Origin: Lingula anatina
Lineage: Eukaryota > Animalia > Brachiopoda
Length of the DNA stretch: 64,000 nucleotides
Direction: 5' to 3'
Assembly: GCA_051362555.1 (NCBI GenBank)
Contig: CM120645.1
Span: 16,430,001-16,494,000, forward strand
The notes beneath the pieces were generated by a model. That model was not told the DNA's origin, ran no database searches, and saw only the letters and a program-made list of their open reading frames with translations. Shown piece by piece: positions 9,637 through 63,666 of the stretch (position 1 is its first letter; each line of letters opens with the position of its first letter). The translations under genes were made by a program, and so were the position numbers.

Positions 9637-9831
9637 ATGTCTGGCCAAGATACCCCCGAAATTACCTTAGCTGAAATAGATGCTATACCTGATTTTAAAA
9701 AAGCCAGAGAAATGCTACGAAAGTTAGGGTTGGACCTCGTTGGTGTGAAAAACAAGGACGACGCCGTCCTAAAATTGAGGAAACACCTGAGGGATAAGTA
9801 TGGTGAAGGTGTGGCTGAGGACCCACTGAAT
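9637..9831 (+). CDS. Gene A coding exon 1: N-terminal basic helical (SAP/HeH-like) module
   Basis: MSGQDTPEITLAEID...EDPLN followed by a gtaagt donor; aligns without gaps to gene B exon 1. Confidence 0.85.
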
Positions 9832-12800
9832 GTAAGTTTAAAATGCTGTAGTGCACAATTCCTTATGTCTGTACTCACTTCGCCTTTGTACATAAATAAG
9901 GTCTACAACTCAACATACCGGTGTATACCTTTAGTTTTTAATTCACTACAATATCAAAATAAGACAACAAACACAGTGGGTTTTAAGAGGTCGTTTGCAG
10001 CCGAAATATTTCTGAAAAAAAATGGACATACATCCAACAACTAACTAGAAGTTTAATTTTGTACATGGTTGCCCTTTTGTTTCATTTCAGGCTGCTGAAC
10101 TAATGGTAGATGCCTTGCAGGAAGATGAAGAGACAAGACAACAGCTTCGCAAATTTTACGAAGCCACGATTAAGTATATTTCTGATTTACCAGAAAGAAG
10201 ACGCAATGACCTTAATCAAAACATTCCGCGAGTGGAAAAAAGATTATGTGAAAGCATTGAAAAACTCTCTAAAAGCGAAAGCGGAATTTTAGTAGCAGGT
10301 AATTCTGAATATGTTGGACACCTTAACTTTCTCTCTGTTTTTATTTTTATTTTAAATAATGCTTTTGTCTTATCTTAGTGGTTGATTAGCAGCACCGTCT
10401 TCTCCCACTAACATAATTTAATGTCCTAGCTGTACGATATACACATTTCCAGACTGTAGGTTTTAAGTAACCTATCACGAAAAAGATTAAATTTGTCAAC
10501 AGTATATCTTCTAATTAACTTCACGTGAATTGCTTAGAAGGTAAGTTAAAACCTGGCCGCTCATTTTGCTTCATTCAAAAATTATATAATAAGTATTAAT
10601 ACCTTTACATAAAATTCGTAGTTATTGTACATTAACTGATTGACATTGTGGATAGGATTAGGGTTATATATATTTTCGGTAAAAAATTAAACAATGCCTT
10701 TTGGTAGTTCTCTTAGTTGTACTACTTGAAACTATATGCTAGTATTAGGGAGGTTTTTTTCACAAAAAATTGACTCTGTATGCATCTTTAAAGGAATACT
10801 TCACCTATCTCAAAATGAATCAATGTTATATTTATGTCTAAATATCCTCCAAACTTATGTTTTTTTTTCGTACATTTGTCTCGACATTTTGAGGTCCCCT
10901 TTTAATACTTGTGCAATTTTGTTCATATATAATTAAGGTGAGACTGGTGCCGGCAAGAGTTGTTTGTTAAACCTACTCCTCGGGGAAGATCTTCTTCCAA
11001 CTGATTTCTTCAGTTGTACCGCCGTGCTGTGTGAATTAAGGTACGGCGACCGTAGGAAAGCTATTGCACATTTCTGGGACACCAGTTTACAACCTGTTAC
11101 CTTGGACCTGGAAGTGCCAGATCCTCTTAAGGTTTTGAAGCCTTACATATTCCAGGAAGAAGGACGAGGGAAGAAGGAATTTCCATACAACAGAGTCCAG
11201 TTATTTTGGCCTATCCCTCTGTTACAGGTAACAAAAGCTACACGATGACAAATTTTGGGAGAGCTTGAACCATTATTATATGGCATTTCTATTCCTTAAA
11301 TAATAACCTACTGTTTAATTAGTTCCTTCAAAAGTATGAATTGTGCCCACATATCTCTGAACATAAAGATTTCGTGACAAGATGTACGTCACATAAAATG
11401 TTTTTCTTCTTAATCAGTTTATGAAACAGGACAAATTCCATTGAAATTTAGCATGCATTAGAAAAGGGCCATCAGTTAAATGATATTGCAACGGCTAAAG
11501 AAGTTTACAATTTATTTACATAATGTATGATATTTTTGATATTAAAGAAATTTACTTACAGGGAGGTGTCTACATCATGGACAGCCCGGGTATAGGAGAG
11601 AATGAAATGATGACAAAGCTTACAAAGAGTTATTTGGCCAAGGCATTTTCCTTCATCTACGTCATCAACAGCATGGTGGCCGGAGGAGTGCAAGAAGATA
11701 GGGTAAAACGAATAGCAACTTAGCGACTTTTACCTTTTTAACTCAGACACTCTTCGTTAATGAATATAATTTAGATCAGTATCGAGCTGGGGTTGGGACT
11801 TAATGTCCCTCATGGGTTGAAGATGTTAAACTAAGAAGTAACTGATATAAGCGGTTTAGATGAATAAGGTTCTTTCGCCATTATTTTTTCTTTTTAAGAG
11901 ATGAGTATGGTTAAGCAGCTCCAGATCAGCCAAAGGATTCGACCAGTTTGCAGCAAATTTAATTTCCGCAAACATAAAATCTTTGAAACTTTTCTCATAT
12001 CTTTGCTTAACTGCCTTTGATGATTGAATAGATATATATAACAACTGCTTTGAATTGGGCAATAAACGGATTTCCCTGGGATAAATGCTAAATTTCCCAA
12101 ACTAATGGTAAATGAATCCATGCAGACATTTAAAGTCCATTCATTGTTTTTCCTAAATAAAATGTATAATAATTTGTTAAGATTACTTACACATTAAATC
12201 CTTGAGAGGAATGGCAATCTATAAAGGTACGCGTGGTCTGATGACAACAACAGATTTTAGAATTATTGTGATAACCACTTTCTTGTGGTAAAAGGAATTT
12301 ATGATATTTTTCTGAGTAGTTAACAATGTATGTATTGTGAAATATAAATCTCATACGATCAGCTGTAATCCTTTCGAGGCGAGAGTACTCGGTAAGTGGT
12401 TTCGGTTTTTATGATTTGGCAGGACAAGCTGACAGCAAACCAAACATTTAGCTGATTTCAGAAGTGAAGTTAGTGAGTAGATTAGAACCGAAGAGTTGTT
12501 CTTTTTTGTAGCTCCAAGGTCTACTTAGTGACGTAGTGAAGGGTAAATTCGAGACAGAAAACAAAAACAGTGGCACAGAAAAACTTGCTTCTGGAGTTCA
12601 TCTGTTCAATCCTTCCACGGCCATCTTTGTACTCAACAAATGGGACCAGGTGCCAGAAAAGGATAAGACAGGCGTTTTAAACGACACGCTTCGCAAGCTG
12701 CAAAAAATCTGTGACGGCTTTACTGCAAACCAGCTATTCCCTATGTCTGTGACAAAGGTGAGCGCACATAGTAAACCTTATTTACATTTAATTACTGGCC

Positions 12801-15800
12801 GTTCTGTACCTAGTAAATCCCAATGGATCAGAGGGTCAGTTTGCAGCAGGCTTCTTTTTGTGGCTTAGATCAAGAAGTACCCCTAAAGTATTTTGATCCA
12901 ACAGCTAGAGGAAGAACAGCCGCTAAAAATGCATGTCTGGTTGTCCGATAAAGCGAGATGTCTCTTTCTTTGTGTAAGGACACTTCATATTAGATGACAA
13001 TGTTTCGAGAGATTGGCTGAAGACTGACATGAGGGGGTAACTGTTGCCCATCGGGTTAGTTCTGTCCACATTTTGGTCTTCACAGAGGTCATCTATAGTA
13101 GGGTAGCGTTCCCCAGAGAAAGAGAAATTGAAGTCTCTAGATGTAAGTCTTAGCACCAGAAATGGTGTCACATGGTAGAGCCCATTATGGTCGGTGTTTT
13201 ATTTGACAACGTGACAATGCTCAACCTCATCGTGCTCTCAGAAAACAATTCTTCAAATACTAGGAAATTGAGAGAGCGCTGAAGTTAGTTGTTATATTGA
13301 GGAATGACGCCAGCAGTCTGGAGCTTTCGAACGTTTATTCACCGACTTACTTTTTCACAGAATCTACAAGTATTTATACATACCTAGGGATGTTATGTGA
13401 CCGTGGTGATATGATGATCACTGAAGCCTGTCCATTTAGACAAGCTTCAGTGAAGATCGAGGGCAACCTCGAGCCGCTACCCAAAAATATCTCGCTTCAC
13501 TCGACATTTCTGCGTAGCGTCTCTCGGAAAACTCGGATTTAACCTCGATGTAGTCTAGAATTTCACGACTACATCTTGGTTAAATCAGTCGAGGTCTCTT
13601 AAATGCTGGAAGTCAAAGAGAGATTGATCGTGAGACCTTCTTGGCATCAAGAGAATAGTGACGTTGCTAGTGTTATATATCTACCAGTAGACAAATGTAA
13701 AATCTCTCACTCTTAAAAAATAAACATTTCACGTTTAACAATTATTAATTATAATTTTATAACAATAATTCATATCATATGGATATGGTTTGAAAACGGG
13801 AATTAGTTTACATTTAAGCCACACGTGCGTACACATTTTTGTAAATCTATGACTTTTTAACGAGGGCTGTGTTATTTACCTTTTGTTTTTAAGCTGTTCA
13901 TTCTTCCTCTTTATCAGATATATCGGTAAAAATCAAATATTTTCCCCCTTTGAACTTGTATAACATGTAGCATGCTCCATGCTCTGAAACCAGCACATGT
14001 ATATTCCGAAACCGCCTCGTAGTAAAACATGTCACCAAAACGTAGAAATATTACTCCTGTGGCCTTGAAATAAACATCCTGTAGTGCCAGGGGCAGGTAG
14101 AACATTTTGACTATATTCCGTAACCGCCTCGTCGTCAGAAATAACAATAAAAACTATAATTATTACTCCCGTGAACTTGAAATAAACATCCGTTTGATTT
14201 TGACTATATTCGGTAACCGCCTCGTCGTCAGAAATAACAATAAAAACTAGAATTATTACTCCCGTGAAATGTAATACACATCCGTTTGATTTTGACTATA
14301 TTCCGAAACTGCCTCGTTGTCAGAAATATCACCAAGAAGTAAATTTCTTTCTCCTTTGCACTTGTGAAAAATTAGTTTGACTTTATTCCGGTCCGACGCT
14401 CCTTGTTTATAAGAAATGTCACTTAAAAGTAGAGGTTTTGTCGTGGGACCTTTTTCTGCAGCAGGTCCAGCTAGGTGTGGCTCAGCTGAGACGCGCATGG
14501 TCAGTGTCGACGATTGATTAAATACTTTTCACGCCAGTTGAACGTTCATGACAAGCATTTAGCAAAAATTGACCACATTGGTCAGTCATTACGTAAGAAT
14601 TTGGCGGGAGGTGACCAGAGCACGTGGACGAGTTTATTTCATATAACATCTCTAGAGCGTGATATAGGGTCACTTTATTCGGTTTTAGGGGTGTTTTAGG
14701 ATGAAATGACTGTATTTGTTCTCGGTATGTATGTCAAATAATACACTGTCACCCTCTCGCGATATATGCCATGAACACCTCTCGCTGACGCTCGAGGTGT
14801 TATGGCATATATCGCTCGGGTGACAGTGTATTATCTCACACATAAACTATTTTCCCAAAGAATTTCCCATTCTCATATTACATAACTCTATTCAATATTT
14901 CCTAATTTAGTAATTTAAATTATACTTGTTTATGATTTAGAATATTTAAAATATTTTCCTAATTACTCATCTTGGATCCTGTCCAACTCGAGTATGCATG
15001 AGTTTTACGTGCAAATCAATAGAAAAATTAACCAATCAGATCCAGCTATATCTAACTCTGAAACGTTCCACCCTTTCTTGTTTCGAGAAAAGTCTCTACA
15101 CTCGTTGACACTTGAAGACATTTACTTTGCACTCAAAAACTTCCTACACATTTAATTCTGTTTTAATTGTTTTGTAATTGTCGAAAGTGTATGTCATTTG
15201 CTTTACAACATACACCCCTTTTTCAAAAGAATTCGTCCTCGAATTCTAAAACTTTACAACATGCGCTCCTTTTTCCATTTTTTTGTAAAGCAAAAACTAA
15301 ATAATATCAAATTTGTAAATTAACAAAACTAATAATGCTATCGTGATGTAGTAAGAGATCCCCTACAAAAATCTATGCCGCATGCTTTAGTGCTCAATAG
15401 GACAGCGTGCCACTGAACGTATAGTAAGAGCAGAACAAAGTCCTTTCCTAGTAATTTTTAGAATAAGTCGTCGAAATCGAGTATACGTCATTCCCCGATC
15501 AACATTCATCAATAATTCATGATAACGTTTAACAGGAATATCTGAACGTCGCAGTAATAGTACAGTAACTAAAACTAACTTAGTAACACTCTATGCATAA
15601 TAGAAATCTTGAATAATACATTTACCAAAATCTAATGGTATTTGATGCAACATGTATACCATGTAATCTTCAGATATCATCAAATAATGAGCACAACTCC
15701 ATAAAGTCCAACTAGGTAATCAAACCGTCCACAAAAATACAAACAAAATTCATTCATGTGTCAAATCAGATGAAAACTTAATCTGAAAATTCGGTTCTCT

Positions 15801-18800
15801 TTGTTGTTTGTATAATTCATTTATATATATACAGAATGTTCACGGAAGTTCTTAAACGACAAGGTTACAGTTCTGTCATCAATGTAAATGTAATGCACAA
15901 GTTCGTCAGGTCCTGCAAAATCAAAAATAATGATAATATTCCTTAAACACCCCATTTCTACCATAAAGTCATTCAAATGTAATAAAAAAATTATTTTTTT
16001 CTATATAATTAACTTACGCATAAAATTATAAACACATTCAACATGAAAACAAAAATATAACCTGAAGGACGATAAATTAATACTTTTTTAGGAAAATGCA
16101 ATTGGATATAGTTTATATTGTCATGTACACATGTTAATATGCGCCCAAGAGCACAGACACTTTTTGTTTGTTTTCTCATGCGGATATTTAAATCTGTTGC
16201 TCACTTATTATGGGTCTGATACAGTTTCTATTTTATTGGTTTTCATTTTAAATATAGTATGAATTTGCTAGGTGAGACAATAGGGTTAGCTACTCCCTGT
16301 CCAATGAACAGCATTCACCACAACGATGCGACAAGCGCATCGTTCATGATGAAATGCATTTTCATCTTCATATTTGTCCACACTGTAGCTCTCCTCTGTG
16401 ATGTCTATAAGAGAAACACTTGTTCGTATCAAATCCAATCCACGAATTTTATGAAATCATTCTGACAAATAATTAAGTCGCAAAATGTGAGAATCTTCCC
16501 TAATGCATTTCATCAGTTTCATGTAATCATTATTTTAAAAATATTAAATACACTGTCCATATCACAAAAGATCATCTGGTCAAATATCGATAACTAATAA
16601 TAATGATCATGGTTAAAACACAATAAAATTAATATTATTATATATCATAGTACATAGTGATTTAAAAAAAACATAATATCTGTCAGGACTTAAGTGTCAT
16701 GTTAATTCCGTGCATCTCGCACACTCTCAGTAATAATAATTATAATACACAGATCAGTTCCTTAGATCATTAAAGGTACAATGAGAAAAACTCAATCATA
16801 CAGTCATTAAAATGTTGTAATAGTACACACACTTCTTATACCAAAAGTTGGCTCGCAAAGATTAATCCACTTAGTTAATTCTAGACACATGTAGAAAGTC
16901 AAGTCAAATTCAACTTGGATAAAAATTAATCTGCATAATTGTGATCAAATGGTTCAAACTGAATATAGAAAAGTGCATTTACATTGTTAATACGCAAAAA
17001 TGCATAATATTCGCTCTTGAGTAATTTTCTGGGTTTAAAAGCTGCAAAAAGTGACAATGGGATAACTCTTTCCAAAACAATGTTTTTGTTTATTATGGTG
17101 TTTATAATTATGAAACCATGCCAATGTTTAGAGTAGTCTGCAGGCACAGAGACTGAAATGAATTGTCAAAATGAGAACAATTATTACTTCACTTTTTAAA
17201 AAGAATGAATCTTTGGTTCTAAGTTCGGCTTATTAATTGATTTTGTTGCGAAATTTTATATTCACTACGGTATAGTAAGTACTATATCGTTTACGCATAC
17301 TTCTTTTAGTAAAGCCATTACTTGTGCCAATTACCTGACCTTGATACACAGATGAAATGTCATCACGAACAATAAGTTCTGTATCCCGAATAAAAGTTTG
17401 AGGTGAATCATCTGTAGGAAATATTTCGTCTGCTGGAATAGCATCTGCCATATAAGTATATGTATTATCTTAATTGTCTCTTTTTTATAATCTCAAATGA
17501 TCACTTATATCTTTGGCAAGAAAAATTGATGAAAAGAAATTGATGAAAATGCTGAAGAAGAGTCGATTCCGAATTTAAAGGTTCCCTAAATAAATAAATG
17601 TTGAAAATATGCATGGTAAACAGAAATAATGCAACAAACCAAATTTAATGGAATGTAGCTGTACGTGCTATCTTAGTGTTGTTATGACAACTTGCCACAT
17701 GGGTTGGGAGGTAAAAAAAAAACATCTAAGTTCAAAATGCAATAACAAATAAAAAATTTGAATGACACATTAATGACATCTACTTAAAGAGGTTGTTGTT
17801 CTATGGCATTTCAGGGGTAATGTCAGTTATGTTAACTTAAAGTAACTGACTTGTCAAAACATCTCGTCTGTATTTTGCCAGTTTATTATGTGCCTTCCAT
17901 TTTGATGTGGCGTTATATATTTCCTTGTGATAACTTGTATTACATCGTTTGGATGTAACCTTTACTCGTATCAAGAAGTGATAAAGAGAAGGAGTAGAAA
18001 CAAGGGGTTTCCTTTCATCCTATTCTCGTAACGGGCTTAATCCTCATAATTACCCAGCTTGTGGTCTTAGGGAGAGCTTGTGCCTAATACATATTCAAAA
18101 GACCGTCCACGTGGGTTGCTTCAGCCAATTGGGATAAAGTCTCGCGGAGTCTCTAATAATCTCACATAGAAAACATGGTGGGATTACAGAAAGGTGTAGA
18201 GATATATTTCCAGCCTGTACGCAACCATTTTGGGAAATAAACCTCAAATCATGTAAGATACACCTCCGTTTGATCTAGAGCCGATCAGTTACACAAAAAT
18301 TAGTTTCACATCAAGAATGTATGAGAACAATTTCACAAACCCACCTTCAACGCTAAAATTTGCACCTGTAGAAGCGTCATTATTATTTTTAATTCTTTTG
18401 TCGTATAAAGGAAATTTACCTTACAGCCGTGTGCACAAAACAGTAGTACTTGCAATTTCTGTATGCTAGTCTCGTTTCTTTCTTTTTTTGGCACATTATT
18501 GCTTATATACCAGGTAGAGAAAAGCTTGCACAGGAAAATTGGGGAAATGAAAATAAGTTATTGCACTTCGTATGATTCTAAATAAAATTTCATTAATACA
18601 TATTTTTGTTTATATCTTCGTCTATTACATGAGGCCAACTTTTAGTAAACTGATAGTTTAAATTCATTAGAATAAAAAATGAAAGAGATATTATTATCGA
18701 TTGATATTGCTTTATTTTAACATTTGAGCAAATTGTATAACATCTAAAACAAAGTACCATCTATGAAAATATGTCAATATTGTTACACCCAACAGTGATT

Positions 18801-21800
18801 AAAGCAATGCAAAAATACATGAATGTATGTGGCAAAAATGGTTAGTTTTTATTTTGATGTGGTGATTATTTTATTTTATACTTCTGACAGTTGGCCAATG
18901 AACACTAAATTCTCTTTTAAAACTTGGACCACTCTTCAATTTTAGCCAAAAATTTTACAAATTTACCTGCGGTCCAGTATCACTTCATATTTGCATCTGA
19001 ATTAATTTATCTTTAAAGGAGAATAGACCCATAAAAATCCATTTCTCGAATTTTGAATATTCAGCACTCAATCTATACACTACAGGTATGTTTTAATCGA
19101 TCCTCACCATTAAAAATTTATAAAAACAATCTATTATTAGAAAAAAGCGTTTTAGTAAACCTCACCTCAATATACATAAATGAAGCAACAGATCTGGGTC
19201 ACGTGGTACTGTGACGACAATGAGGATAAAGAACTATGAGACTTAACTGAGCTGCATGGTGCACACAGACAATAGTTTAAGAAATTTGTGTTAAACGGAG
19301 TTGAGCAATTTTCTTTATGCCTCAGTGTGTTGCCGTGGGATTCACCAAAATTGCAGCCCTCCTTGACAATCTTTCTTTGTCGGTGACGGTCTTCCGTGAC
19401 TTATTAACTTCGGTGACAATAGTTGCGAGCTTGCGATCTCGGTCACCTCATGTGTTTTAGATCATACCAAAAGCTGATAGTCTTTTAGATAAACTGTCAT
19501 CAGTTGGCAAGCTTACTAATTGCTGATGCATTTAAATGCATTGTAGTTGACCAAGAGCTCGTAAACAATAAAACCTGTTAATTATGCACTGCTGCAATTC
19601 CCAAGCCAGCTAGGTAATAACAGGTATCAAACTCGTCTTGGTGGGCTTTCATATTTTACAACATATCTCATTTATTTCATGGGGTTATTTTATTGATATT
19701 TTTAAGTGACGTTAAATATCAATATTTAAACAATTAAGATAAAACACGGTCGCGAACATTAATAACAGATATGGCTCTCAGGGTATCTTGAAGCATGCTT
19801 ATGCCCAGGCATTACTTCCTTGGAAGAAAACGTGTTGAGGAAAAACAGGAAAAAGAGCGTTATATTAAAGAAAAATGGGAACTCATGTAATGAAATGGTT
19901 CGTAATCCTAATACGTTTATTCTTTAAGGATTTGTTTTTGAAGGTTATTTCTTCTGAAATATTAAATAATTTAAAAGGTTTATCATTTTATAACTTGAAA
20001 CGCAAGTTCTGCGTCTGTACGCAAAACTTTTTGCAAATTTGTAAGCTTTGTCAAACCCAAAAACGTGTAGCAGATCAAGGTAAAAGAGCATTGTCTGCTA
20101 CTGGTAGTTTACTAAATGTGCAGTTTTACGTACGTTAGTATATTTCAAATTATGCATGGAGATTTAACCTGATAAGGGATATAAGAAAGCCACAAACGGA
20201 TTTTTTAAAAAGAATGTTGGGTGTAAAAAAAGAGCCTTACTGATAACTTAGTTCATTGTATATAACTTAGTATATTATGAAAAGCGGGAGATACCCAATT
20301 CTTTTAAGTATGAAGCTACTATTTTTTTAATATATTGATTTAAATCCCCTCTTCGAAAAATTTTATTATAAAACCGTGCTATAAAGATCTACTCAAGAAA
20401 AAAGTTTGCTTGGCTTAAATTGAGTACGGAATGAACTGGAGACCCTTGGCTTGTCATTAAGTTTTCACGAAAATTTGTCAGATAACTTTATACTGTCCTT
20501 GAAAGAGTAAAGATTGAAAGAAAATTTTAGACAAATAGGCAAACTTTGACGGGGGAAATATCCACAAAGAGTAAAGGGCTATTGCGCCAACATCTTGTTG
20601 AATTTTTTTATACTGCAATTCTATTTAAATAAGCTAAGAAACTAACTGCCACATTTAGACTTTCATCACATAACAGGGGCATAACCAGACCTGCAAAAGC
20701 TGTACGCACAGATTAAAAAAATTACAAGCACGTACAGCAAAATGTAGACTAACGCAAAACATGAAGGACAGCGTAATCACAGCAAATGTACCTCATATAG
20801 TAGCTTAATTTCCATTTATAATAAAATCATCATTTTTAAAAAAATACATATTTGAGTGATATTTGATATCTGTCTATATCCATGGACAGAGTGGAATCAA
20901 AGTAGACACCCAGGTTTTTCACGTATGGTAATGGGTTCACAACACTGATGCCTACTGTAATTCAAGTTGTAGATTCTATACGTCTTGGAATGTTTCTAGA
21001 ATATTCAGAAAATTTTTTGTGCCACCTTTGATAGTGTTTCTTTTCTTTTAACAATTCATTATGTTTATATCAGGCTCAAAGTGCACTGAAACAGGGCTGT
21101 GCAACACCCGAGTTCTCCAAATTTCTTGTTGGACTGAAGAATCTTTTTCCTAAGACCCTTAAATCAAATCAGGAGAGTAAATACAGGTAACGAAATGTAC
21201 ATATTAGGCTGTTTCCTTTATAATGGTCACCATAAAATATGTCATTCAGTGAACTGTTTATATAAGATGAGCATGTATGAACTCTGAAAATTTTATATTA
21301 TTACTTAATAATGATAACCTTTTAACCACAGAAAATATAATTTTCTTTTTTTCATACACAATTTAGATTTTTGGTCCACATTCTGCGAAGATCTGCGTTT
21401 CATCTAAAGTCAGCTTTAAACATCTTTGAAAGATCTGAGGAAGAGAGTAGTAAAAAAGCCACTGAAATCAAGCGACAGATTGGAAACATAAAGAACAATT
21501 ATGAACAGATTCGTGTTAACTTGCAAGGAGTTTTAAAAATAAAGGCTGAACAAGCGGAACGGCAAATCAAAGATTATCTGAAAAAGAATAACCAGCGTGT
21601 CCTTAAATGGAAAGACGGCGATTGTCCAAAGCCAACAGACCATTGGGATGACCTTTACACACAAGCTAGAACCCTAATCCTCGGGAGAATCCGTGAAATT
21701 CTTGAGGAATGGAACGCCAACACGGAGTTTTTCACAAATGCTCAGAAGGAGCTTATAGGAAAGTTTCGCGAAGAGTTCAACATCATGGAGAACCAAGTTG

Positions 21801-26699: not shown

Positions 26700-27202
26700 T
26701 TTCCAGAAGATTGTGACTGAAAAAGTATTTTATATACTTTTTTTAATGTGAACAAGTGGAATGGCTGTGTCGTAATAATATCATTACAGGAAAATACGAA
26801 GTGTTTCAAGGACGAAAGAACGGAGGCTTCTGTTTTCCTAGGGAGGGAGGGTGAACTTGTCATGGACAGGAAAATATCGGTTGTAAAGGGCATGCGCACA
26901 CACACATACACACAAACACAACAGTTATTGTTTAGAATAAATTATAATTTTAAGGTTAATTCTTTTCATGCTAGAATAAAAAAGTAAGGTTTTAATTTAA
27001 AACATTTTAATTCATTAAAAAAATCCTACGGTATATCAATCTGTGTATGGCGTTAGTGCATGATATATAATATCATATTTAGAATTTATTATATTGCCTA
27101 CAATATGTGATAGATGACAGGATTGATAGATGTTCTGTCTAACACACCAAATATAATAATATCCCATACATTGATTTTTGTTTGAATCTGATAGATTGGA
27201 CT

Positions 27203-27238
<36 letters not shown>

Positions 27239-27314
27239 AAATTTTATTAAAATTAATTTCCATTTTCTTAAATGTTACTAGAAGTCTCTTTTTTTTTTTT
27301 TTTTGATAAATGCA

Positions 27315-46558: not shown

Positions 46559-46904
46559 GAAACATTTTAATTTTATCATTATTTTGTTTATTAAATAAGT
46601 TAAGCTGTTGTTGCTATTAAGATTTAATAAAAATTAAGACATGGTTCCATCACAGGCCATATTATCCTTGCTGGTTTTAGTATTTTCAACAACCTGGCTA
46701 TGCAATTGTTTGCTGTCTTTTGAGTTGTATGTTCCTATGCAGCTAACCGAAGGTACACATCCAACTCAGTTAACATATCTGAAATATTTTTGTAGTAAAT
46801 CCCCAAGTACTGCAAGGCAGACAATGTATAATTCCATCTCGCAAGTAGTGGGCAGGCCAAAGATTTTGGAAAGCGCATAGTAGAGACACTGACACAGGAG
46901 CCAT

Positions 46905-46995
46905 CCCAGCAGACATTGATTCTACGTTGATTCAACGTTGATCCACCAAAATAAATGTTGAATCAACGGTGAATCAATGTCGTTTGTCTGCTGGG
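46905..46995. mobile_element. 91-bp CCCAGCA-type mini-MITE with AT TSD
   Basis: cccagcagaca / tgtctgctggg termini and internal gttgattcaac palindromes. Confidence 0.75.
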
Positions 46996-49778: not shown

Positions 49779-50111
49779 GGGGTGGGGTGTGTTCAGGGGT
49801 GTTCAGGCGCCTGGCTTCACATCTAATCCATAAGGGCGAAAGGTAAAATTAAGTAGCTTGCCGGTGACCTACTAGGATCACTCAAGTCAACCTCTCCTCC
49901 CCGCGGTACACCCTGAAAACTAGGTCCTAGCGGGCCTAGGCTAACGAGGCTCTGGCTAAGTGAAGGAAAACCCTGATATAAAACCTACCGCGGGGGGCCA
50001 ACAACCCTCCCGGTTCAAATAATTGTTACTGAAACCACAGAAACTTCTACTTCAATTAGGATCTGCGGCCATAAGTCCCACACGTGACAAAGAGGAATGA
50101 TGAAGATAATT
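49779..50111 (+). mobile_element. RTE-derived short non-autonomous retroelement
   Basis: 25-bp flanking duplication agcacccacgatcaYcgttttaacg, RTE-like gaaggaaaaccctga motif and a gaggaatgatgaaga tail. Confidence 0.6.
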
Positions 50112-50536
50112 AGCACCCACGATCACCGTTTTAACGCCGATTTAATGACACTTTAGTCCGCAAACCCTGCCAGACATTTTTATAGAAGTCTTAGGTCAGA
50201 TTTTATCGTTGATAAAACAAAATAATGCCTTTGTTTAATAAAAATATGTTATTAAGGGATTCATAACCAATAATAAAAACATGTAAACCAAACTGACGGC
50301 ACAGCATTGTAGTCCGGACAACTCTGCCAATTTTCGTGATAAACGTTCAGGGATAACGTTACGCGCCATACCGATTGCTATCTCACCTCAAATAAGAGAG
50401 GTGTTAATCAATGATCAAAGCTCAGAGTTGCCTTTGCTTATGCATTGCAACGAAAAAATAAAAACGTCTATATGTTATTTTAAGGGCTTTTTCATTGTTT
50501 TAAATCAGAACAAAGATAGATGCATTATTGAAAAGT

Positions 50537-53520: not shown

Positions 53521-53526
53521 AGATCA

Positions 53527-53610
53527 GGTGTGATGGCCTAGTGATTAGCACGCTTGATTCGGGTGTGAGGGGTCCCGTGTTCAAATGCTGTAGTTGCGAC
53601 TTATCATTCT
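53527..53610 (+). mobile_element. tRNA-derived SINE head (degenerate)
   Basis: A-box tggcctagtgattag and B-box-like gttcaaatgc at tRNA spacing, with no intact acceptor stem. Confidence 0.55.
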
Positions 53611-54062
53611 GGTAAACATTAAAAAATAAGATGTAGGAAAACTCATTTTCGGTATTCAATACAGAAGAGTAATAATAACTTCAGTAAATGTCTGTAACGC
53701 TAATTTCGTTATTCAACAGTGGCGACGGTAAACAGATAGCATGCCCTTCTTATTTATTTATTTATTTATTTATTTTACTTTGTTTAAATCGAAGACAGTA
53801 ACGCACCATAGGGTTTTCTTCACGCACCGCTCAGTTCGCAGTGTTTAAACGATAAATTGTCGCCTTGACACAGACTACGTGGAAATGTGAAATTTTAGAA
53901 TTTCGCTGTCCTTGGTCGATACTGGCTGTAGGAACCACTAAAGAAGTTAAATGCGCGTAGGTACTGGGATTTCTTTTATATGGTGGAGATAAACGCTCAT
54001 AGCCAGTCGCACCTCACTCCGTCCACTCCCGATTCTGGTTTCTGAGCGTCAGAACCGTTACG

Positions 54063-54482
54063 TATGGTGTCTGGTTGCCACAATCGTTTTGAAAAAACTA
54101 AATGAATTTCTGGGTGCCAGGTTCCTTTTTCGAAAACCGACATTTTTTTCGACAAACAGGATTTTTTTTAAAATCGTTTTATGAAAAATTTAATAAAAGT
54201 AAAATTTTACTCCAGTCTTGCATCGCAGGTCACCCCTTCACCTGTCCTCACCCCCCCCCCCCCCCCTCATACACACAAAGAACAATTCGTCAAAAACGAC
54301 ACTAGCTTCTCAGTGACAGAGTCGTTTTTTCGATTGAATTTAATCAAACTTAGAACCCCCCACCCAGCAAAACGAGTCACCCAAGGCCAGTTAACCCTCC
54401 CCCACCAACCTGCTATATATTTAATCGTAGACAACGAGCCCTCCTGCGCAGCGGAAAGAGACCGTGATATCCAGACACCGTA
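54063..54482. mobile_element. MITE with imperfect TIRs
   Basis: tatggtgtctgg..cac / gtg..ccagacaccgta. Confidence 0.5.
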
Positions 54483-55741
54483 GACACCGATTTGGCCTCC
54501 CTACACGGCGGTTGTTCCTGACACCCCCTCACACATACACACCCAAATGACTCTAGAAACTAAGTATAGTCATATAAATTTACCACGCTGCAGTAGGAAG
54601 GAAAAACGTATATTGTTGTGTAGCCCAAATGTTTATTCGTGCATTCTATATTTACAATTACAAGATTTCTTATCATGTCATATTTCCACACCACGGTGCA
54701 TCACAAAGTCTCTATGGTGCTCCGAAACTTTACATTCTAACCTTTTCCACAGTCTACTTTCATTTACTTGGTCATGGAGACGCTCTTACATATTATATAT
54801 TTTTTATTATTTTCTCTATAAGTATTTATTAAAAGCGAATTAGAAGCGCTCAATCAAATCATTTAATTCCCTTCATCTCAACTTAAAAGAATGACTAATC
54901 TTTATGCTGCTATCTTTTACATCCCGTTGATTGATTCTTTTATCCACACACTCTGGCTCGTTGAAATAAGACTAGTCGTTGACTGTAATATCAATTTCAT
55001 TTAAACAACAGAAAAATAGTAAAAAATAGTAATTGATTTTAATTACGATAAAAGTGACAGAGTCGTTTTTGAAAAACGCCAATAGTTTCGAATTACTAGG
55101 TTCCTTCTTTAAAAGTTTGCAGTGAATATTTTCTTGAGTTAATGAAATAATAAAAAGCATTCGCCCTACACCAACAATGCATTACATCACTGTTCAATAT
55201 TGCGATTTATATAAGGGTAGGATGCATGCTAATAATAAAAAAACACTAACTCTTAAAGTTGCGTGTCTACCCCCATGCAGAGCCAAATGACATCTCTGTA
55301 CACAAGCTAGCGTAGGTTTCTAACGGTTAGAGCTTTTCTATATAAAATATATTATATATGTGTTTCCAAAGAATATTCACATAAGAAACAAATGTTATTA
55401 TGTATAAATAGTAGTGTACAAGTCAATGGAATAAAATGGAATAAAGAAATTGCCGCTGAAAAAGCAAACCTTAAGCATTAGTTTATAACACACACACAAA
55501 CAAACAAAAACATAGATTAACGCGAATTCAAAGATGAACCATCATTAGACAAGTACATAGCATGATCTTTGTATGAATATGTGATTACCCTGTACAAAAT
55601 CTAGGAAATTAAATCAACAGCTACACTGCATGCTCTCTGTAATGAATATCATATTTAAAGATCAAAGTACCCTTTATTAAATACATGCCCCTTAATAAAA
55701 ATACGGTCACCTGTTCTGTCGTTTAATGACAATTAACACCA

Positions 55742-56161
55742 TCACACAGCACTTTCTTTTCGGTTCAGTAAATCCTGTATTCCATGCATCCGATCTCTGC
55801 AGTCTTTTATGGCGATTTCCCCGGATAGACAAGCCCTCATGGTCTTCTCCCAATATGCCTCCAAGGTCGGGTCCATTTTACCAGTTTCAAACTCTGGGGG
55901 GAAGTTGCCCTGCCTAATGCCGGCAATGAAGTCTCCAACTACAAGAATTCTCTGGCTTTTGTACACATGTTCATTATGCCATATCTCCCACATCATGAGC
56001 CCAAGGGCGTAGATGTTGGCATCAGCATCGTAAGGTTTGGTGCCATCGAGGACGCTGTAGGGGAGATAAACCATAGATCCTATGGGGGAGTTGGGATCTG
56101 GGGGTGGCATCGTGACAGGCTTGCTAATGTTCACTAACTTCACGGTTTTATCCCGCCCAGC
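55742..56161 (-). CDS. Gene B exon 8: pseudokinase C-lobe and stop
   Basis: AGRDKTVKLVNISKP...GSMVYLPYS...DANIYALGLMMWEIW; equivalent to gene A exons 9 and 10 fused. Confidence 0.88.
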   Translation of the reverse strand, partial: AGRDKTVKLVNISKPVTMPPPDPNSPIGSMVYLPYSVLDGTKPYDADANIYALGLMMWEIWHNEHVYKSQRILVVGDFIAGIRQGNFPPEFETGKMDPTLEAYWEKTMRACLSGEIAIKDCRDRMHGIQDLLNRKESAV

Positions 56162-59100
56162 CTATAAAAAATATAAGGGATCGTTCAGAATGAACTTAGT
56201 CGCAACAGCTCACTTACTCCTCGGGGACCCTCGCTGAATGCAATCAGATTAACAGACTAACACGCCTCCTCTTGACGTTGAGTAAAATACGGAGAATGAG
56301 TACGCCAGTCACGTTAGAAAAAAAGAGGATTAAGCAAGTGCTACCATGAAGTTAATGTGCATGAACTATTGCGACCTAACTCCCCTAAGTGAACAGGTAT
56401 GTGTGTAAACAGGTATGTGTAAAATTTCTAGTTATTTCCTTTACATATTACTAGGCGATTCTCCATGCCACCATACAACTATATCTTTCTTTTGGAATAT
56501 CATTACACATTACACACGGTCAATTCCACCATGTGCACCAGATTCCAGGACAATCCCCCCCCCCCCCGATAATCCCCCCGCCCAGACAATACTCCCCGGA
56601 CACCCCCCCTCCCCCGAGTTGAGTACAAGTAGAGAAAGTATTATTAAATATTTAATCAAAGTATAACCAGGTAAAGGTGGGGTAAACATATGAACAGTTC
56701 AACAGGTAAACATTTTTTAATTCTTTTTCTTTTTGTACGGCGGGAAGTGAGTAGGTGGATAGTTGTCAATCAATTAAAAGTGACATATAATCAAATGGAT
56801 ACCTGTATGAGTGAGAGAATATGTTTACCCAACCTCTCCCTAGAGATGCACCCTGGTGCAAGGCTTACTTAATCAGGGGGACGGATATTTTAACAATTAA
56901 AAGTAACACTAAATTCATCTAAATGTTACCTGGATGTATGAGATCATTTGTTTACCCCACTTTACCTGGAGATATACTTTGATAAGATTTTTAATAAAAT
57001 TTTCTTTACTTCTATTTCTGAAATTTCCTGTACTTGTATTACTTGAAAATAATTTGTTTAATGAATTAAATATCTTCTATCTTTGAGATGCATTATCACA
57101 CTAAGAAATATCCATACAATAGATTAATAGATTTGAGCTTCATACTCTTTACTTTATATTTGAATATAATTATTTATTCTTCGGGGGGGGGGAAGTCCGG
57201 GGGGGGGGGGGGGAAGATTGTCCAGGGAGGAATTGTCAGGGGGGAAATGTCCGGAGGGGGGGTTGTCCTGATACCTGTACACCTTATCTTGTACAAGGTT
57301 GTGAGTTCGCGACTGTTTATTTGTTTCTTGTAATGCTCTTTGCGCTCTGTGTCAAAAAGCAACAAAATCAAACTAAATCACAAGAGAAAGGAGAATTCAA
57401 GATAAAATTTGATATTTCTTTTTTATAAATACTCACGGTGATCATAACTGTATCCATAGACAAATCCAAACAGACGAAGCCGTTTTGTGCAGGTAGGCCA
57501 AGGCAGCCGCCAGTTGGATTAGACAATCTATCGGTTCTTTGAGTAAACATTGGACCAGCTGACCCGGGACGACTTTTCGACTACCCTTGCCACTGCTGAG
57601 GACCCTCAAACTGGTCAAACGCGGGGTCAAGATAAGAGATGGCAGTTCAGTTGTGGGGTCCAAATAAGTACCCAATATGGTAGGAATGAATCTCCTCTTT
57701 TGTTGCTTCATTTTTCTGGAAAAAATAATTTGTCCTTGTGTTATGTCCTATTTAATGTATGGTGCCAGCCATAAATCTCTACGATTAAGAAAGAAAAAAC
57801 TAAACTGAAGTAAACATAGAGAATGTTTAAGACAAGAGTTAACTTCTTATTTCTACACACCTCATTTCAATGATATCTTCACGTACTTGCTTTTCACATG
57901 TAGCCCCTTTATATCGTTTTACAGATATTTTGAGGGATTGACCCTTTGGAGATTTTAAGATGGCAGAGAAAACTTCAGTCCAGTTTCCTTTATATGACGT
58001 TGGCCCTTTAACAAGTCTGATGTCTGCTTCCACATCTGTCTCGTTATAATCGTACGATAAAAGATGTGTAATAGCAAAATCTTCCAGCGCACGGTTAACT
58101 CTGGTAAACTTCTTGACGACAGGGTCATAGGTGTCGATGAGCTGCTCTTTAGACCGTTGATCTTCTTTAATGGACTGCATGTACTTTCTTGTTGATGATA
58201 TAAGCTGTGGAATGGACTCGCGCACCATCTGTAGATGATCCCTGGCCTCTTGGAGTTGAGCATCGACGTAGGCCTTTGTAACATCACGCTTAGCCATTAT
58301 TTTCAAAGCCTCGGATGACCTATCTCGAAGAAATTCACATTTCTTCTGGTCATATTGTTTTAAGATTTGTTTCTCTTTCCTCTTCCTCACATGTTTTTTT
58401 ACGTCAACAAAAAGAAATGCCGGTGACGCAAGAAGCATACCCAACGCACCAATGGGTAAAATGATAGGTGAAAATAAACCGAGTGCAATTTTTTCACCTA
58501 GGTTAAAGTCTACAATTGACATTTTGTTCACCTCATTGTCCATTAGGTCTTGTAATTCCATGTAGGCCGCCAAATCTCTACTTTCACTGGAATCTGTTTC
58601 CGAGGACCGTTCCAGCATGTTTTCAATCATGCGCAGCTCAGATTCAATTAACTGGAATTCTCTAGTGAATTTTTTGAACAAGTCTTTCTTCAGAGTTTCA
58701 AAATGTTTTTCGTCCGTTTCCCAAGACCTGATGGCATCAATCATCTTTTACAGATGGCATCTTCTATTCTTCCTTCTAAATAGTTCCAACTAAACCCATA
58801 AGGAGCTTCGGCATTGGTCCAAGAGGTAACTTGAGCACAGACAGGATCGCTGCTAAGATATTTAGATAAAGAATCAGTAATGGTTTCACATTCTTTATAA
58901 AGATGTTCGTCTAGTTTTTTCAAAATTTCTTCCGACTTTTTCTCAAGTCTGTCCAGCCGTTTCTTCTGGGAGTTGTGCTGAGCCTCAAGTTCATCCCTTG
59001 TCAAATTGGCAGAATGAAGATACTGCTGAGCACAATCTATAGTGCGCTCTACCATATGTTTGCCCCATCTAAAATAAACATAGTATAAATAACCTCTATT

Positions 59101-62100
59101 ATGAAAAATATTTTAAACAGCCTCAGGAACTGGCTCAAAATCAGCGCGCTATATAAAAATGTAAACGCACATTACAAATAGATATTGTTTATTAACATAA
59201 TGTTAAATTGGGTGTCGTATTATTACTCAGGAACACGGAATGAGTTTACTTTAATAAAGAAATAAATAAACTGAAACACACCGGTGCACATGCTCCGTCC
59301 TTCTTTGCAAACTCACTGGAATCAGGCCCTTGATGCCTCTGACCAGCCGCCTGTAGTCGTGAGTCATGTACCCAGCCTGACTGTGCTGCCACGCCATTTT
59401 AGCAGAAAGGGTAAATATCTGCTTTGATGAATCCATGGGCCGGTTCCAGCCCTCACTTACTGCCAAATGTACGTTCTCTAAAGCCTTTTTCCTTGCGTCC
59501 TCTGGCACCAGATCCCAGCGGTTGCAGACAAAAATAGCACAGCCAGGGTCAAATATTGGCTCTCCAGCAGTATCCTTCATATCTTGAAGTTGCCGGAGCA
59601 ATTTTTGGATCTACGGAAAGAACATCAGATAAATAATAAGATAAAGATGCTATCATATGGTCTTCGCACACTTCAAATCATTTCATTTATTCTCTCATCT
59701 TCAAACGAGAAAGAAAAGGCTATCACACATATTAGATTAAATGGAACGTGTTGGAAGTGAGCTGAAAGTAATTTTTGAAAACAAATATTATTTTTAAATT
59801 ATTAAAATGTTTAAGTCAATTTAGCGAAAATATTATTCCTGACTGTTGGTGGCCGTTTAGGATTTTAAACAGTAAAAAATGAAATCAGAAAAACTTCTAG
59901 TGAACACGTGAGCTGGGATAGTGGTATAAGGCTTGTTAATGAGTATTTTATATACACTTTGACCAAAAGCCTGATCAGGCCTGGCTCAGCTCCTCTCGTT
60001 TAGTCGGCCAGTCCTCTTTCCTTCTTATTGCACAGCCTAGAGCATCTCAAAAATGCTCTATGGGATTCGAACAAGGAGAAAAGGCAGGCTTGTCTATTTG
60101 CCCGGTAGGCCATTGAAGAATTGTTGCGTTCTTTGATCCCGATGAAGCTTGTTGAAATAGAAAAAAGACCAAATTGGCTTGGTTTGATGATGGTTCGACC
60201 TTCATTATGACTACTACCGTTGGCAAGTTCTAACCCAAAAAGTATTTAGCAAACCTACTAGTATCTCAAAATTGACATGGAAGAAAGATTCTTATATCAG
60301 TACTATGAAAAAACAACTACATTTTATCGGAAAACCAAACGTGCACCTAGTAATGCACGTGAAGGCAATGAAGTTGATGGGTCCATTGTAATGTGGGTTC
60401 TTCTGTTAGGTGAAGAAAATTTTCTCTGAGTCCTCTGAGAAAAAGCTGACAACTGTTCTTTGACGACCCATCTGGTAGAGCATACGATCCTTCCAGGTTG
60501 TAGTCTTAGGTGGGAAACCACTGCCGATGACTGATCACACATATTTCTTTGACCTACCGCTGGATGATATTACGATTTATCTCAGGAAGCTACAGTATCT
60601 ACTTTTCACACCTCAAGCCTCAAACAAATCAAGGACTATATCCAATGAAGACGTGTTAAAACAAACCAACCGTAGAAGCGTTAGTAAAGTCATCAAGAAA
60701 AAGAGATGGAAATGGATTGGCCAAGTTTCACCACAAAAGTAACCATGTACTGGACACCAGAGGGACACAGAAAAAGAGGCAGACCTAAGACCACACGGAG
60801 GCTGAAACAACTGAGGAAAACCCGGGGAATTATTCAACACCTAGCTCGTGACAGAGCGCAGTGGGAGATCTTTGTCGGTGCCCTAGACGCCCGACTGCGT
60901 GAAAGTATATAGTAGTAGTACCTATAACAGCACTAGACAAAACTGACATGCGACACCAACTCCGAGTGAAAAATGCACATGACCCATCAGTGTGATCAGA
61001 TATGTTACATAACCATAAGGTAATCAAATCTAATCAGCTCTTGTGTATTAAGAAGGTAATTATTACACTTATACCATTGTGATGATAGTTAAGCTATTTT
61101 CATATTTCTGACAATTATTACGGTGAACTTTGAAATTAAATCATCTCTTGTTTTCGAAATATTCCATTATTTTAACAAAGGAGTAAGAGGGCGAATATAT
61201 TTGTATGGTGACTGATGGTCACTTATATTAATTAAAGGAAGTTCATGTTCACCCCGCAAGGGCTCTTCGCAACTTTAAGTATGTTGATTTGAATATTTTT
61301 AAGCAATACAGACTCAAATGCTTTTAATGCAATTTTGTCTGGGGAAAACTGAGCAAGTATATTTCAAGCAATATTATTGGAGAATTGAGAAAAGCTTAGA
61401 ATACAATATCAGTGGGAAATATTATTGCATTTAACTTACCCTATCTTCTTGTACTCCGCCTGACTTATCAGTCATAATGACGTAAATGAAGGCAAAGACG
61501 TCATTGTTGGCAATGAAGTCAAGAACCACGTCATCCATGACACCACTCTCACCAATACCAGGGCTGTCGATGATATACACACCACTCTAAGGGCATAACA
61601 CAATTTTGTTTATGCATTTTGTGGATACTTAATATAAAGGCGTCATACCTTAGACAATTTTCTATGAAATTACATGTACATACCAGTTCCCAATTTAGTT
61701 TCATGTCACAATTTTACACGTACATAGAGGTATATCTTTAAGAAACACAATCTATACATCATTTTCCATAAACCCTGTCTTTATGAAATACGTCATTACC
61801 TTTAACAGTTCAAATGGCAAATAAACATCAACAGTGCACTTTTCCAGTTCATCCTCCCTCGCTGCACCTTTAGGAAATAGAACAGGCTCCAAAGACGAAC
61901 ACAAATCATCAGGCTTCTTTATGGGGACTTCCGACGACTTCTTGCTGCCGTCAGGTTGGTATGTCACTTTGAATACTCTAGGTTCTTCTCCATACTTTAT
62001 TCTTGTGATCGCTGCTGTGCAGCTTAAATGGGCTTCCGGTAGGATCTTTTTGCCAAGGAGAAGGTTCAAAAGCGTGCTCTTCCCCGAAGAAGTTTCGCCT

Positions 62101-63666
62101 AGAATGTGAAAAGCCTTGTAAGTGAAAATAACATGATAAAGCCTTCATAACACATTGGTAACAATGCCTTGACGAAGTACTTTTTGCATTTCATTATATA
62201 TATATATACAATAAGGCCAAAGTAATAAACAAACAATCAAATACATATGTAAAAAGCAATGTTTGATACATAAATGAATGAACCGATAATGCAAAATAAT
62301 GTGAATAGAATTGATTGAATAAAAAAATTAAAAATCAATGACCCAATCTAGAAATATCATATGGATAAAATACATGTATTTTTTATTAAGTATGCGTATG
62401 CGTGCTTGTGTAATCATCGGATATTGTGATTGTGTTCCCTTTTACAACTGCACATGTTGTAAAAGGTTGAGCTCAGAAAAACGCTCCAGGTTGTTATCCG
62501 GCCGTTCACTTGTTAACAGCAATAATTATAAGGTATTAGAGCTGACACGTCTGGGGGTAACACCCCATGCTCCAATGGGTAGCTCAACGACTGGCTAACG
62601 ATAACACAGTGAGCAAACATGTATTGTGTTCATGTAATACAATCAATTCATAAATGAAAAAAATATCACTACCAGTTGAGTTATAAAAAACTGTTACTTT
62701 TGTTAACATCTAATTTATTATGAGCTCAATAGTATATATAATTTGAATGACATATTAACAGAGGAAGAGTATTTTGATAAAACTGCCCAGTAATTTGATT
62801 ATAAACAGTGACTTGTTTGGTTAATAACTCCTACCTGCTACAAGTATTGGGCAGTTACCAGTTTCGAGCATGGTGATCCTTTTACGCACGTTTGTGTCTG
62901 CGCTCTCAGATACAACATTCTCAGCTTCCAGTCTCTTTAAGATGCTCAAGTCAAGTAATGGTAGGGACTCCTTAATGGTTTTAAAGATCGACTGAAGTGC
63001 ATTTCTTCTTTGCGTATCATTCTCTCGTAGTTCAGCGAAAACATCAGCGGCCTAAAATTATATATATTTAGATAAACATACAGTAACTTTTGTACCCTGG
63101 CTCCCAACAACATATTCAATATACCCAACTGATATAAGGAAAACGAGGATCAACTGCTCCACGTATAAAATATGGAGAACCCTGCATGAAAGAAGACCAG
63201 ACAAATCCGCAGATGGGCTCCCCACCTCCACACGCGCCATTAAGCGGATTGAATCACTAGCCCAAGGTTTAATTGCTGGACCTCTGCAATGACAGAGCGT
63301 GTGAAACGGAGAAACCATTAGCAGATTAGTCGGGTCTTCTTTCAGGTAGAGTCCGCCATACTTGATCCGTGGATCAGAAGACCCTCGGGTTTTTTATTCT
63401 GATTGGCCTCTATGTTTACAAAACAAACGCAAAAAAAAGTAAACGTGAGTATATTTGAATAAAAAGAAAGACATAGACTATACCCTTTCCAATCTGGGAA
63501 CTTGAGAGTGTTCTGCCTCGAAATGTAAGCGAAGCCTTTCTTTTAGATCCTGTAGATCTTCAATGTCGTCAGTGTATATCTCAAAACGATCGCAAATATC
63601 AAAGGCCTCCACGGAGTCGTTCAAAGACTCGATGGTGTCTAGAGTTATGTCAATTATATTTGCCAT
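55742..63666 (-). CDS. Gene B: paralog of gene A, dynamin-like GTPase + membrane hairpin + pseudokinase, about 1027 aa, 8 coding exons, with two apparent 1-bp deletions
   Basis: Exons (minus strand) 63666-63484, 63051-62835, 62098-61800, 61586-61440, 59610-59282, 59068-57861, 57715-57437, 56161-55742. All introns are GT-AG, and all seven match gene A intron positions and phases. G1 AGETSSGKST, G2 SCTA, G3 DSPG, G4 NRWD; hydrophobic IALGLFSPIILPIGALGMLLASPAFLFV; kinase fold with ISVK but CLDLSMDT, NIS and PYS. Frameshifts at T4 runs 58746-58749 and 57483-57486. Confidence 0.85.
56540..57277. mobile_element. Foldback MITE with poly-C/poly-G arms in gene B intron 7
   Basis: caggacaatcccccc / ggggggttgtcctg termini; internal ccaggtaaaggtggggtaaaca vs tgtttaccccactttacctgg. 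Confidence 0.7.
57437..57715 (-). CDS. Gene B exon 7: degenerate catalytic loop (frameshift near 57485)
   Basis: LAYLHK, then after a one-base shift NGFVCLDLSMDTVMIT with a gtgagt donor; aligns with LKYMHAKGYIHRDLKPENIL. Confidence 0.8.
57861..59068 (-). CDS. Gene B exon 6: stalk, membrane hairpin and kinase N-lobe (frameshift near 58745)
   Basis: ORFs 58741-59055 and 57839-58744 overlap at ATGA and align colinearly with gene A exon 7. Confidence 0.87.
59282..59610 (-). CDS. Gene B exon 5: G4 NRWD
   Basis: IQKLL...AIFVCNRWD...EHVH; equivalent to gene A exons 5 and 6 fused. Confidence 0.9.
60597..60920 (+). mobile_element. RTE LINE 3' fragment in gene B intron 4
   Basis: ISNEDVL...RWKWIG...WTPEGHRKRGRPKTT...ARDRAQW, with a (TAG)n tail. 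Confidence 0.8.
61440..61586 (-). CDS. Gene B exon 4: G3 DSPG (not in the ORF track)
   Basis: SGVYIIDSPGIGESG...FAFIYVI...GGVQEDR, gtaagt donor. Confidence 0.92.
61800..62098 (-). CDS. Gene B exon 3: P-loop GETSSGKST
   Basis: GETSSGKSTLLNLLLG...SCTA...LPFELLK, gtaatg donor. Confidence 0.92.
62835..63051 (-). CDS. Gene B exon 2 (this frame is not in the ORF track)
   Basis: AADVFAELREND...GNCPILVA, phase-1 gtagga donor; homologous to gene A exon 2. Confidence 0.85.
63484..63666 (-). CDS. Gene B coding exon 1: N-terminal acidic helical module
   Basis: MANIIDITLDTIE...PRLER, gtatag donor; an upstream acceptor at 63710-63711 implies a UTR exon, as in gene A. Confidence 0.82.

Follow-up and report, generated by a model that had tools for sequence, protein, structure and literature searches.

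Convergent dynamin-like GTPase-kinase and GTPase-pseudokinase genes in the brachiopod Lingula anatina

A stretch of 64,000 nucleotides of Lingula anatina DNA (assembly GCA_051362555.1, contig CM120645.1, positions 16,430,001 to 16,494,000, forward strand; hereafter the window) carries two genes, A and B, each encoding a predicted dynamin-like GTPase fused to a kinase fold. According to our analysis, they represent a real, ancient and apparently undescribed paired variant of the dynamin-like proteins (DLPs) with a kinase/pseudokinase layer, whose mechanism we infer. The observed core consists of the domain order, the motif states, the depth of the A/B split and the adjacency of such genes in two phyla that are only distantly related. 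We tentatively propose, with slightly less than an even chance, that the two products form a heterotypic membrane pair in which the predicted-dead kinase of B would control the predicted-active kinase of A.

Structure, motifs and fold of the two genes

Genes A and B lie in a window of AT-rich animal DNA and converge, with their 3' ends 29 kb apart (Table 1). A first, sequence-only reading of the window had described them as convergent paralogues with the same domain order, and exons, Pfam matches and structural models agree on this. The two proteins share 23% identity over 972 alignment columns, and their subtype profiles align end to end. All introns of A are of the GT-AG type (9/9) and its reading frame is open throughout the 1013 residues. 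As reported earlier, seven intron positions are common to both genes: every B intron (7/7) coincides with an A intron in position and phase, five of them in the identical alignment column and two off by 2-3 columns in gappy regions, and A has two additional introns. Segments of family genes from other animals stop at the same exon boundaries (L005, L008, L010, L014 and L017 at A residue 231, followed by GT). Since these positions are family-wide, we rejected the shared introns as a sign of recent A/B duplication.

The GTPase motifs of A were found at residues 135 (G1), T162 (G2), 238 (G3) and 320 (G4), and its kinase keeps the beta3 lysine (K760), HRDLKPEN (875), DLG (895) and APE (917). With every catalytic motif present, the kinase of A is predicted to be active. 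In B, CLDLSMDT replaces HRDLKxxN, NIS replaces DFG and there is no Gly-rich loop; the catalytic-loop Lys and Asn and the DFG Asp are lost, while the beta3 Lys and the HRD-position Asp are retained. The dependence of productive Mg-ATP binding on such residues is established kinase chemistry. Because B lacks the Mg-binding Asn and Asp as well as the Gly-rich loop, it is predicted to be unable to bind Mg-ATP productively. The motif survey agrees with the earlier view of an intact kinase in A and of a dead kinase attached to an intact GTPase in B.

The closest proteins are uncharacterised Lingula anatina genes, which match the large exon of A at 86% and that of B at 98%. Full-length relatives at 25-34% identity were found in amphioxus, corals, a scallop and a freshwater mussel, and hemichordates have relatives too. 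The Pfam scan returned the Dynamin_N and Pkinase matches that had been expected, both in the exons and in full-length database copies, with Dynamin_N scores of 58.6 and 73.1 bits for the A and B types (cut-off 27). AlphaFold2 models of P0001 (A type) and P0035 (B type) reached a mean predicted local distance difference test (pLDDT) value of 72 and 74, and in both a three-helix N-terminal module (N-module) is followed by a neck, the GTPase, a long trunk and a kinase fold; the hydrophobic tip is poorly predicted. In Foldseek searches, both models match first the bacterial dynamin-like protein (BDLP) of Nostoc (2j69; E 7e-19 and 3e-19) and next IniA; the list for the B model goes on to mitofusins and Campylobacter jejuni DLP1/DLP2 (Cj-DLP1/2). 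Nostoc BDLP is also the best PDB sequence match for the GTPase (E 1.1e-18). By sequence and predicted fold, A and B both qualify as GTPases of the BDLP/mitofusin class. The N-module of A gave no usable language-model feature match, and its likeness to Rho_N/SAP-type folds was weak, below threshold. Two family models, P0014 and P0036 (coral and Lingula), have no kinase domain; they are real short forms or truncated models.

As anticipated, databases list some family members under the name DSTYK. The sequence-only reading knew of no functional description, and literature searches aimed at the family gave none, most subscription papers being outside the search range. The available parts of PMC10280142 leave out the BDLP and mitofusin classes, and those of PMC9573974 give no coverage of a dynamin-kinase family.

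The assembled gene B contains two one-base deletions, near 58743 and 57484, each breaking the frame. Our 1027-residue reading shifts one exon boundary by a base and inserts one unknown base at each of the two gaps; the frame breaks had gone unmentioned in the sequence-only reading. X1 and X6 are DNA runs from two different studies. Contigs of X1 carry the extra base at both sites in all depth, and those of X6 carry it in all depth at 58743 and in 157 of 203 at 57484. Contigs of X1 also match A introns without a difference across 492-898 bases, so this run carries the window's A haplotype, yet no frameshifted B is present there. Database protein P0042 (1027 aa) is intact and 99% identical to B. 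From these extra bases and from P0042, both frame breaks are most likely assembly errors. The exon variants (14 among 40 rows of 299, one indel-adjacent row excluded) comprise 8 synonymous and 6 nonsynonymous changes, a small sample leaning to purifying selection.

Some features concern A only. At the exon 9/10 junction (25783-26532), window A is 7 residues shorter than database A copies; a micro-exon encoding these residues was sought in the window and none was found. Intron 8 holds a 541-base segment with TA ends (24402-24942) inside a high-copy repeat. It resembles a DNA-transposon insertion and is missing from other copies of the repeat, the joint being seen in X1, X12, X15 and X18. The depth of run X1 was 56-61 over contigs identical to A introns (9822-13340 and 25733-26885), compared to 103-294 over B. 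This depth, about half or less, suggests heterozygosity or hemizygosity of the A haplotype found in the window.

Table 1. Coordinates of genes A and B and of the spacer in the window
Feature	Position	Strand	Description
Gene A	9637-26699	+	10 exons, 1013 aa; N-module, BDLP/mitofusin-type GTPase, stalk, kinase (predicted active)
Gene A exons 1-5	9637-9831, 10091-10298, 10938-11227, 11562-11702, 12512-12757	+	
Gene A exons 6-10	21074-21186, 21367-22518, 22703-23009, 25562-25783, 26532-26699	+	
A exon 1	9637..9831	+	small three-helix N-terminal module
A exons 2-6	10091..21186	+	first neck helices, GTPase domain with G1-G4
A exon 7	21367..22518	+	helical stalk, hydrophobic tip, start of kinase N-lobe
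A exons 8-10	22703..26699	+	remaining kinase (HRDLKPEN, DLG, APE)
Gene B	63666-55742	-	8 exons, 1027 aa; domain order of A, pseudokinase at end
Gene B exons 1-4	63666-63484, 63051-62835, 62098-61800, 61586-61440	-	
Gene B exons 5-8	59610-59282, 59068-57861, 57715-57437, 56161-55742	-	
B exons 2-5	59282..63051	-	neck and GTPase domain, G1-G4 intact
B exon 6	57861..59068	-	stalk, hydrophobic tip, pseudokinase start; apparent assembly indel near 58743
B exons 7-8	55742..57715	-	pseudokinase: CLDLSMDT 877-884, NIS 899-901; second apparent assembly indel near 57484
Spacer	26700..55741	.	29 kb between convergent 3' ends; repeats, retroelement remnants

Age, neighbourhood and expression of the two types

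A profile search listed its best 150 matches, and we analyzed a set of 90 rows, made up of proteins covering GTPase, stalk and kinase and including the two window models and near-copies. The catalytic Asp, the Asn and the DFG Asp are present in 47 rows (active) and not in the other 43 (pseudo). The 43 pseudo rows have a common signature, most frequently of the form Hx[E/D]L[S/T]xDT, and none of them keeps the DFG Asp. All four G motifs are intact in 41/43 pseudo and 45/47 active rows. The signature is common to brachiopod, mollusc, hemichordate and amphioxus, and the B type is an old, widespread subfamily of predicted pseudokinases with intact GTPase motifs. Defined as a 19-residue segment with a hydropathy of at least 1.6, the hydrophobic tip was found in A (residues ~590-608, 2.49), in B (residues ~594-612, 2.14), in 30 of the 47 active and in 21 of the 43 pseudo rows; the models of the A and B types have a pLDDT under 50 in this segment.

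Trees were built on GTPase and stalk columns alone, so that the kinase state is unable to drive the grouping. In a 32-row tree, a single branch (97/99) divides the carriers of pseudo and of active kinases, although the analysis warned of long branches. In the 81-row FastTree (9 near-copies dropped), a single supported clade takes in 29 of the 37 pseudo rows, and 3 changes are required. A 51-row tree, from which 39 rows were dropped as near-copies, long branches or by thinning, requires 2 changes. In it, window B clusters with pseudokinases of amphioxus and molluscs (98), and window A with active forms of amphioxus, hemichordates and molluscs (95). Forcing all 24 pseudo rows together was 10 log units better, and the approximately unbiased test does not reject a single origin for these pseudokinases (p-AU 0.72). 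The groupings indicate that the A/B split most likely predates the protostome-deuterostome split.

Adjacency was judged by consecutive or near-consecutive locus numbers, by consecutive protein numbers and by equal-sized contigs, orientation being known for the window pair only. In Lingula, A-type and B-type genes are neighbours at five loci (LOC106174710/708, 106179517/516, 106178621/620, 106166321/322 and 106164177/176), the first four of which also have consecutive protein accessions. All five neighbour pairs seen are A-B, with no A-A and no B-B pair, and they account for 5/8 A loci and 5/8 B loci among those seen, several models being partial. In amphioxus, BRAFLDRAFT_81321 (active motifs) adjoins BRAFLDRAFT_81322 (pseudo motifs). 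Another Branchiostoma annotation likewise has the counterparts of both on a single contig. By these annotations, the amphioxus pair is an independent case of A-B adjacency. The A-B linkage, which the sequence-only reading had proposed to look for in related genomes, was found at these six loci, and two diverged DLP genes probably lie side by side across genomes, though not universally in the loci seen. The metagenome loci (20/20) were too short or single-gene and hence uninformative on pairing. At LOC106164177, database model P0002 starts as an A type and ends in the last exon of a B type, although the neighbouring P0039 carries a B last exon of its own. Either P0002 has been joined wrongly, next to an additional B fragment on the strand of A, or it is a true hybrid whose C-lobe is dead.

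The two genes diverge unevenly. Compared with one database pair, window B is 99% identical to the B member but window A only 85% identical to the A member, and in Lingula A copies diverge faster than B copies. The exon 1 module is the most variable part of A (60-62% identity to 3/3 comparable Lingula A copies); identity in the neck of A is 73%, compared to 92-100% in the corresponding B regions. The copy trees of A and B are not congruent. This asymmetry points to an exchange of alleles or to diversifying selection acting on A.

RNA reads were sampled from about 6% of runs X12 and X15 and 25% of X18, at 92% likeness. On B, X12 gave sparse stranded exon reads (depth up to 3.3) with 2 reads spanning intron 4, and X15 a depth under 0.6 restricted to the 3' end; neither run gave any read on the A large exon. 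X18 covered the A large exon at a depth of 5-8, and its reads differ from the window in a way that suggests a further A copy or another allele. The A and B types are each transcribed somewhere. With G1-G4 kept in nearly all pseudo rows, a common pseudokinase signature and a few stranded spliced reads, B looks neither neutral nor silent, two of the findings that would have spoken against the sequence-only reading.

A possible heterotypic pair and its alternatives

In the proposed pair, A and B would both bind membrane via the hydrophobic tip of the stalk. GTP-dependent dimerisation of the A and B GTPase domains, as in Campylobacter DLP1/DLP2, would alter the stalk conformation and juxtapose the C-terminal kinase folds. 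The pseudokinase of B may act as an allosteric partner, as a scaffold or as a substrate, and a target would be phosphorylated by A. Most likely, the pair would watch over endolysosomal membranes that are damaged or enclose microbes, and the variable N-module of A would set specificity. In favour of a pair are the predicted BDLP-like fold of both types, the A-B neighbours in Lingula and amphioxus, the age of the split, the G motifs kept in active and pseudo rows, the about equal numbers of the two types (47:43), the paired DLPs of bacteria and the late-endosomal location of DSTYK, a related kinase family. The multi-copy family, the faster divergence of A and a weak match of the LeoBC (Eleos) profile to A over 73-749 (E 1.9e-8) give a hint of defence. 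Complex prediction of the kinase folds (P0001 718-1017 with P0035 733-1027, run without alignments) scored 0.00 in both runs and was used as evidence neither way. A stronger form of the proposal would make A and B an obligate heterodimer of bacterial-dynamin-type GTPases, at least as old as the bilaterian ancestor, which assembles with GTP on damaged or foreign membrane and switches the kinase on via the pseudokinase. Such a sensor of membrane integrity or pathogens would descend from paired bacterial anti-phage dynamins and form an expanded sister family of human DSTYK; we consider this form rather unlikely.

Several known systems share parts of this design. RIPK3-MLKL and LKB1-STRAD each combine an active with a dead kinase, and MLKL couples a pseudokinase to a membrane-acting helical domain. 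To our knowledge, these partners are neither full-length paralogues with a common GTPase nor neighbouring genes. Control of Roco proteins is linked to dimerisation. Like A and B, Roco proteins (LRRK1/2) hold GTPase and kinase within one chain (PMC9573974); unlike them, they have a Roc-COR GTPase, no membrane stalk and no paired pseudokinase gene. Roco membership was rejected, no Roc or COR family being found at E up to 0.1 in any of the five proteins scanned. DSTYK ('RIPK5') resembles A and B by its similar length and C-terminal kinase, and we know of no pseudokinase partner for it. Of the language-model hits, 15/30 belonged to the set with a DSTYK cluster at its head (top score 0.91), family clusters reaching 0.97; unlike A and B, the DSTYK clusters stand apart from the family clusters and have no Pfam Dynamin_N match, in a comparison by features only. 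DSTYK is located on late endosomes and phosphorylates STING (PMC11933320).

With Nostoc BDLP (2j68/2j69), mycobacterial IniA and mitofusins, A and B share a GTPase and, in the predicted fold, a helical neck and trunk; the hydrophobic tip would be a further, candidate likeness. They differ from these by an identity of about 16%, by a helical module added at the N-terminus and a kinase or pseudokinase at the C-terminus, and by being intron-containing animal genes in many copies. Two diverged BDLP-type GTPases side by side are also a feature of Campylobacter jejuni DLP1/DLP2, the fused DynA and LeoA/LeoBC (Eleos). In contrast to those, A and B bear kinase folds and are convergent and 29 kb apart, outside any operon, and their heterodimer is putative. 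Most bacterial DLP genes are paired, and Cj-DLP1/2, joined via an N-terminal assembly domain, hydrolyse GTP only as heterotypic G-dimers (PMC6104087). DynA of B. subtilis confers phage resistance and limits phage spread (PMC8844932). In 317 eukaryotic genomes, 415 co-localised Eleos-like hits were reported (10.1101/2022.12.12.520048), and the supplement of that work may list such genes with no description.

A number of observations weigh against the heterotypic pair. Deep tree branches are weak, with 2-3 label changes in the 51- and 81-row trees. The tip is missing from 17/47 active and 22/43 pseudo rows (39/90), both named mollusc proteins checked included. In Lingula, the five pairs derive from recent copying of a block (A 80-97% identical, chimeric P0002 aside; B 88-99%), some of them may be alleles, and so together they count as about one event. 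Among the proteins seen, no partner was present for 3/8 A and 3/8 B Lingula loci, nor for 3/4 B-type loci of B. floridae (88492, 90202 and 89869), and the named coral proteins seen were all active-type or kinase-less, none pseudo-type, in an incomplete sampling. As only 30 clusters could be named, the lack of a coral B type or of amphioxus partners is weak evidence. The variable N-module of A beside the nearly fixed one of B is a poor fit to a rigid A:B interface. Finally, none of the RNA runs gave reads of both genes: X12 has B but no A reads and X15 almost neither, X18 having been compared with A only; X12 leans against co-expression of A and B, though divergent A copies could escape mapping.

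In one alternative view, A and B are linked but physically independent paralogues. An ancient tandem duplication would have left two separate homo-oligomers, the kinase fold of B being merely structural or binding, and adjacency would reflect inherited clustering plus recent segmental duplication. Family genes do cluster anyway: amphioxus has two A-type genes at a short distance from each other, and one coral contig holds an active and a kinase-less gene; the recent origin of the Lingula copies, the loci without partner and the B reads without A reads in X12 fit as well. It is harder to reconcile with an opposite-type neighbour in both a protostome and a deuterostome when the A/B split is older than those lineages, or with five A-B pairs among the five seen in Lingula. 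We consider this view unlikely, though deserving of attention.

In a housekeeping role, the pair would tether or fuse endolysosomal or vacuolar membranes in development, its kinase coupling to trafficking, with no immune function. The fold of BDLP/mitofusin kind agrees with it, as do the DSTYK clusters, which are the next nearest by language-model features (0.91), and the endosomal location of DSTYK (PMC11933320). However, the three RNA runs gave very low expression, a housekeeping gene would not be expected in many diverging copies within a genome, and molluscs retain a separate DSTYK cluster; we consider such a role improbable.

Plant pseudokinase baits offer a precedent for a decoy. One member of the pair could serve as bait for a pathogen effector or as sensor of foreign membrane and the other execute the response, the pseudokinase of B mimicking host kinases. 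A dead kinase attached to an intact GTPase, the copy-number expansion and the asymmetric divergence of A and B would be in line with this. A decoy is expected to vary fast, yet the B pseudokinase is 89-100% identical across Lingula copies and one pseudokinase signature is kept across phyla, and we judge a decoy quite improbable. That window B is a decaying pseudogene in an accidental pair is very improbable and already largely refuted: two frameshifts in the assembly and few RNA reads are outweighed by gaps filled in contigs of two independent studies, an intact 99%-identical protein on record, 8 synonymous among 14 listed exon variants (a small sample) and an ancient B class, and we rejected it on the DNA-run contigs carrying the missing bases.

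Remainder of the window and meaning for the family

Further family exons were found nowhere else in the window, spacer included, and no Rfam family matched in it. A broken non-LTR (long terminal repeat) retroelement lies at 50546-53541, mainly on the reverse strand, with endonuclease and reverse transcriptase fragments in several frames; a further reverse transcriptase fragment is at 43906-44163 (+). At 505-1023 (-), an open reading frame of 172 aa with a helix-hairpin-helix match (HHH_3, E 1e-7) is possibly the start of a transposon reading frame. Dispersed duplications of about 900 bases were found at 32684-33570/35515-36393 (88% identity) and 1533-2461/7081-7986 (80%).

Animal BDLP-class GTPases are usually equated with mitofusins. 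Our results point to a large second animal BDLP branch in corals, molluscs, brachiopods, hemichordates and amphioxus, in which a membrane GTPase is fused to a kinase that is active in some members and dead in others. The dead ones form a widespread class of pseudokinases, defined here by its fixed signature, and the neighbouring arrangement of A-type and B-type genes at five Lingula loci and one amphioxus locus is new. If the two proteins act as a pair, they would couple membrane state directly to phosphorylation and would be a candidate innate-immunity module of invertebrates. In that case, they would also suggest how the N-terminal two-thirds of human DSTYK, so far unexplained, might be understood, an idea that can be tested.

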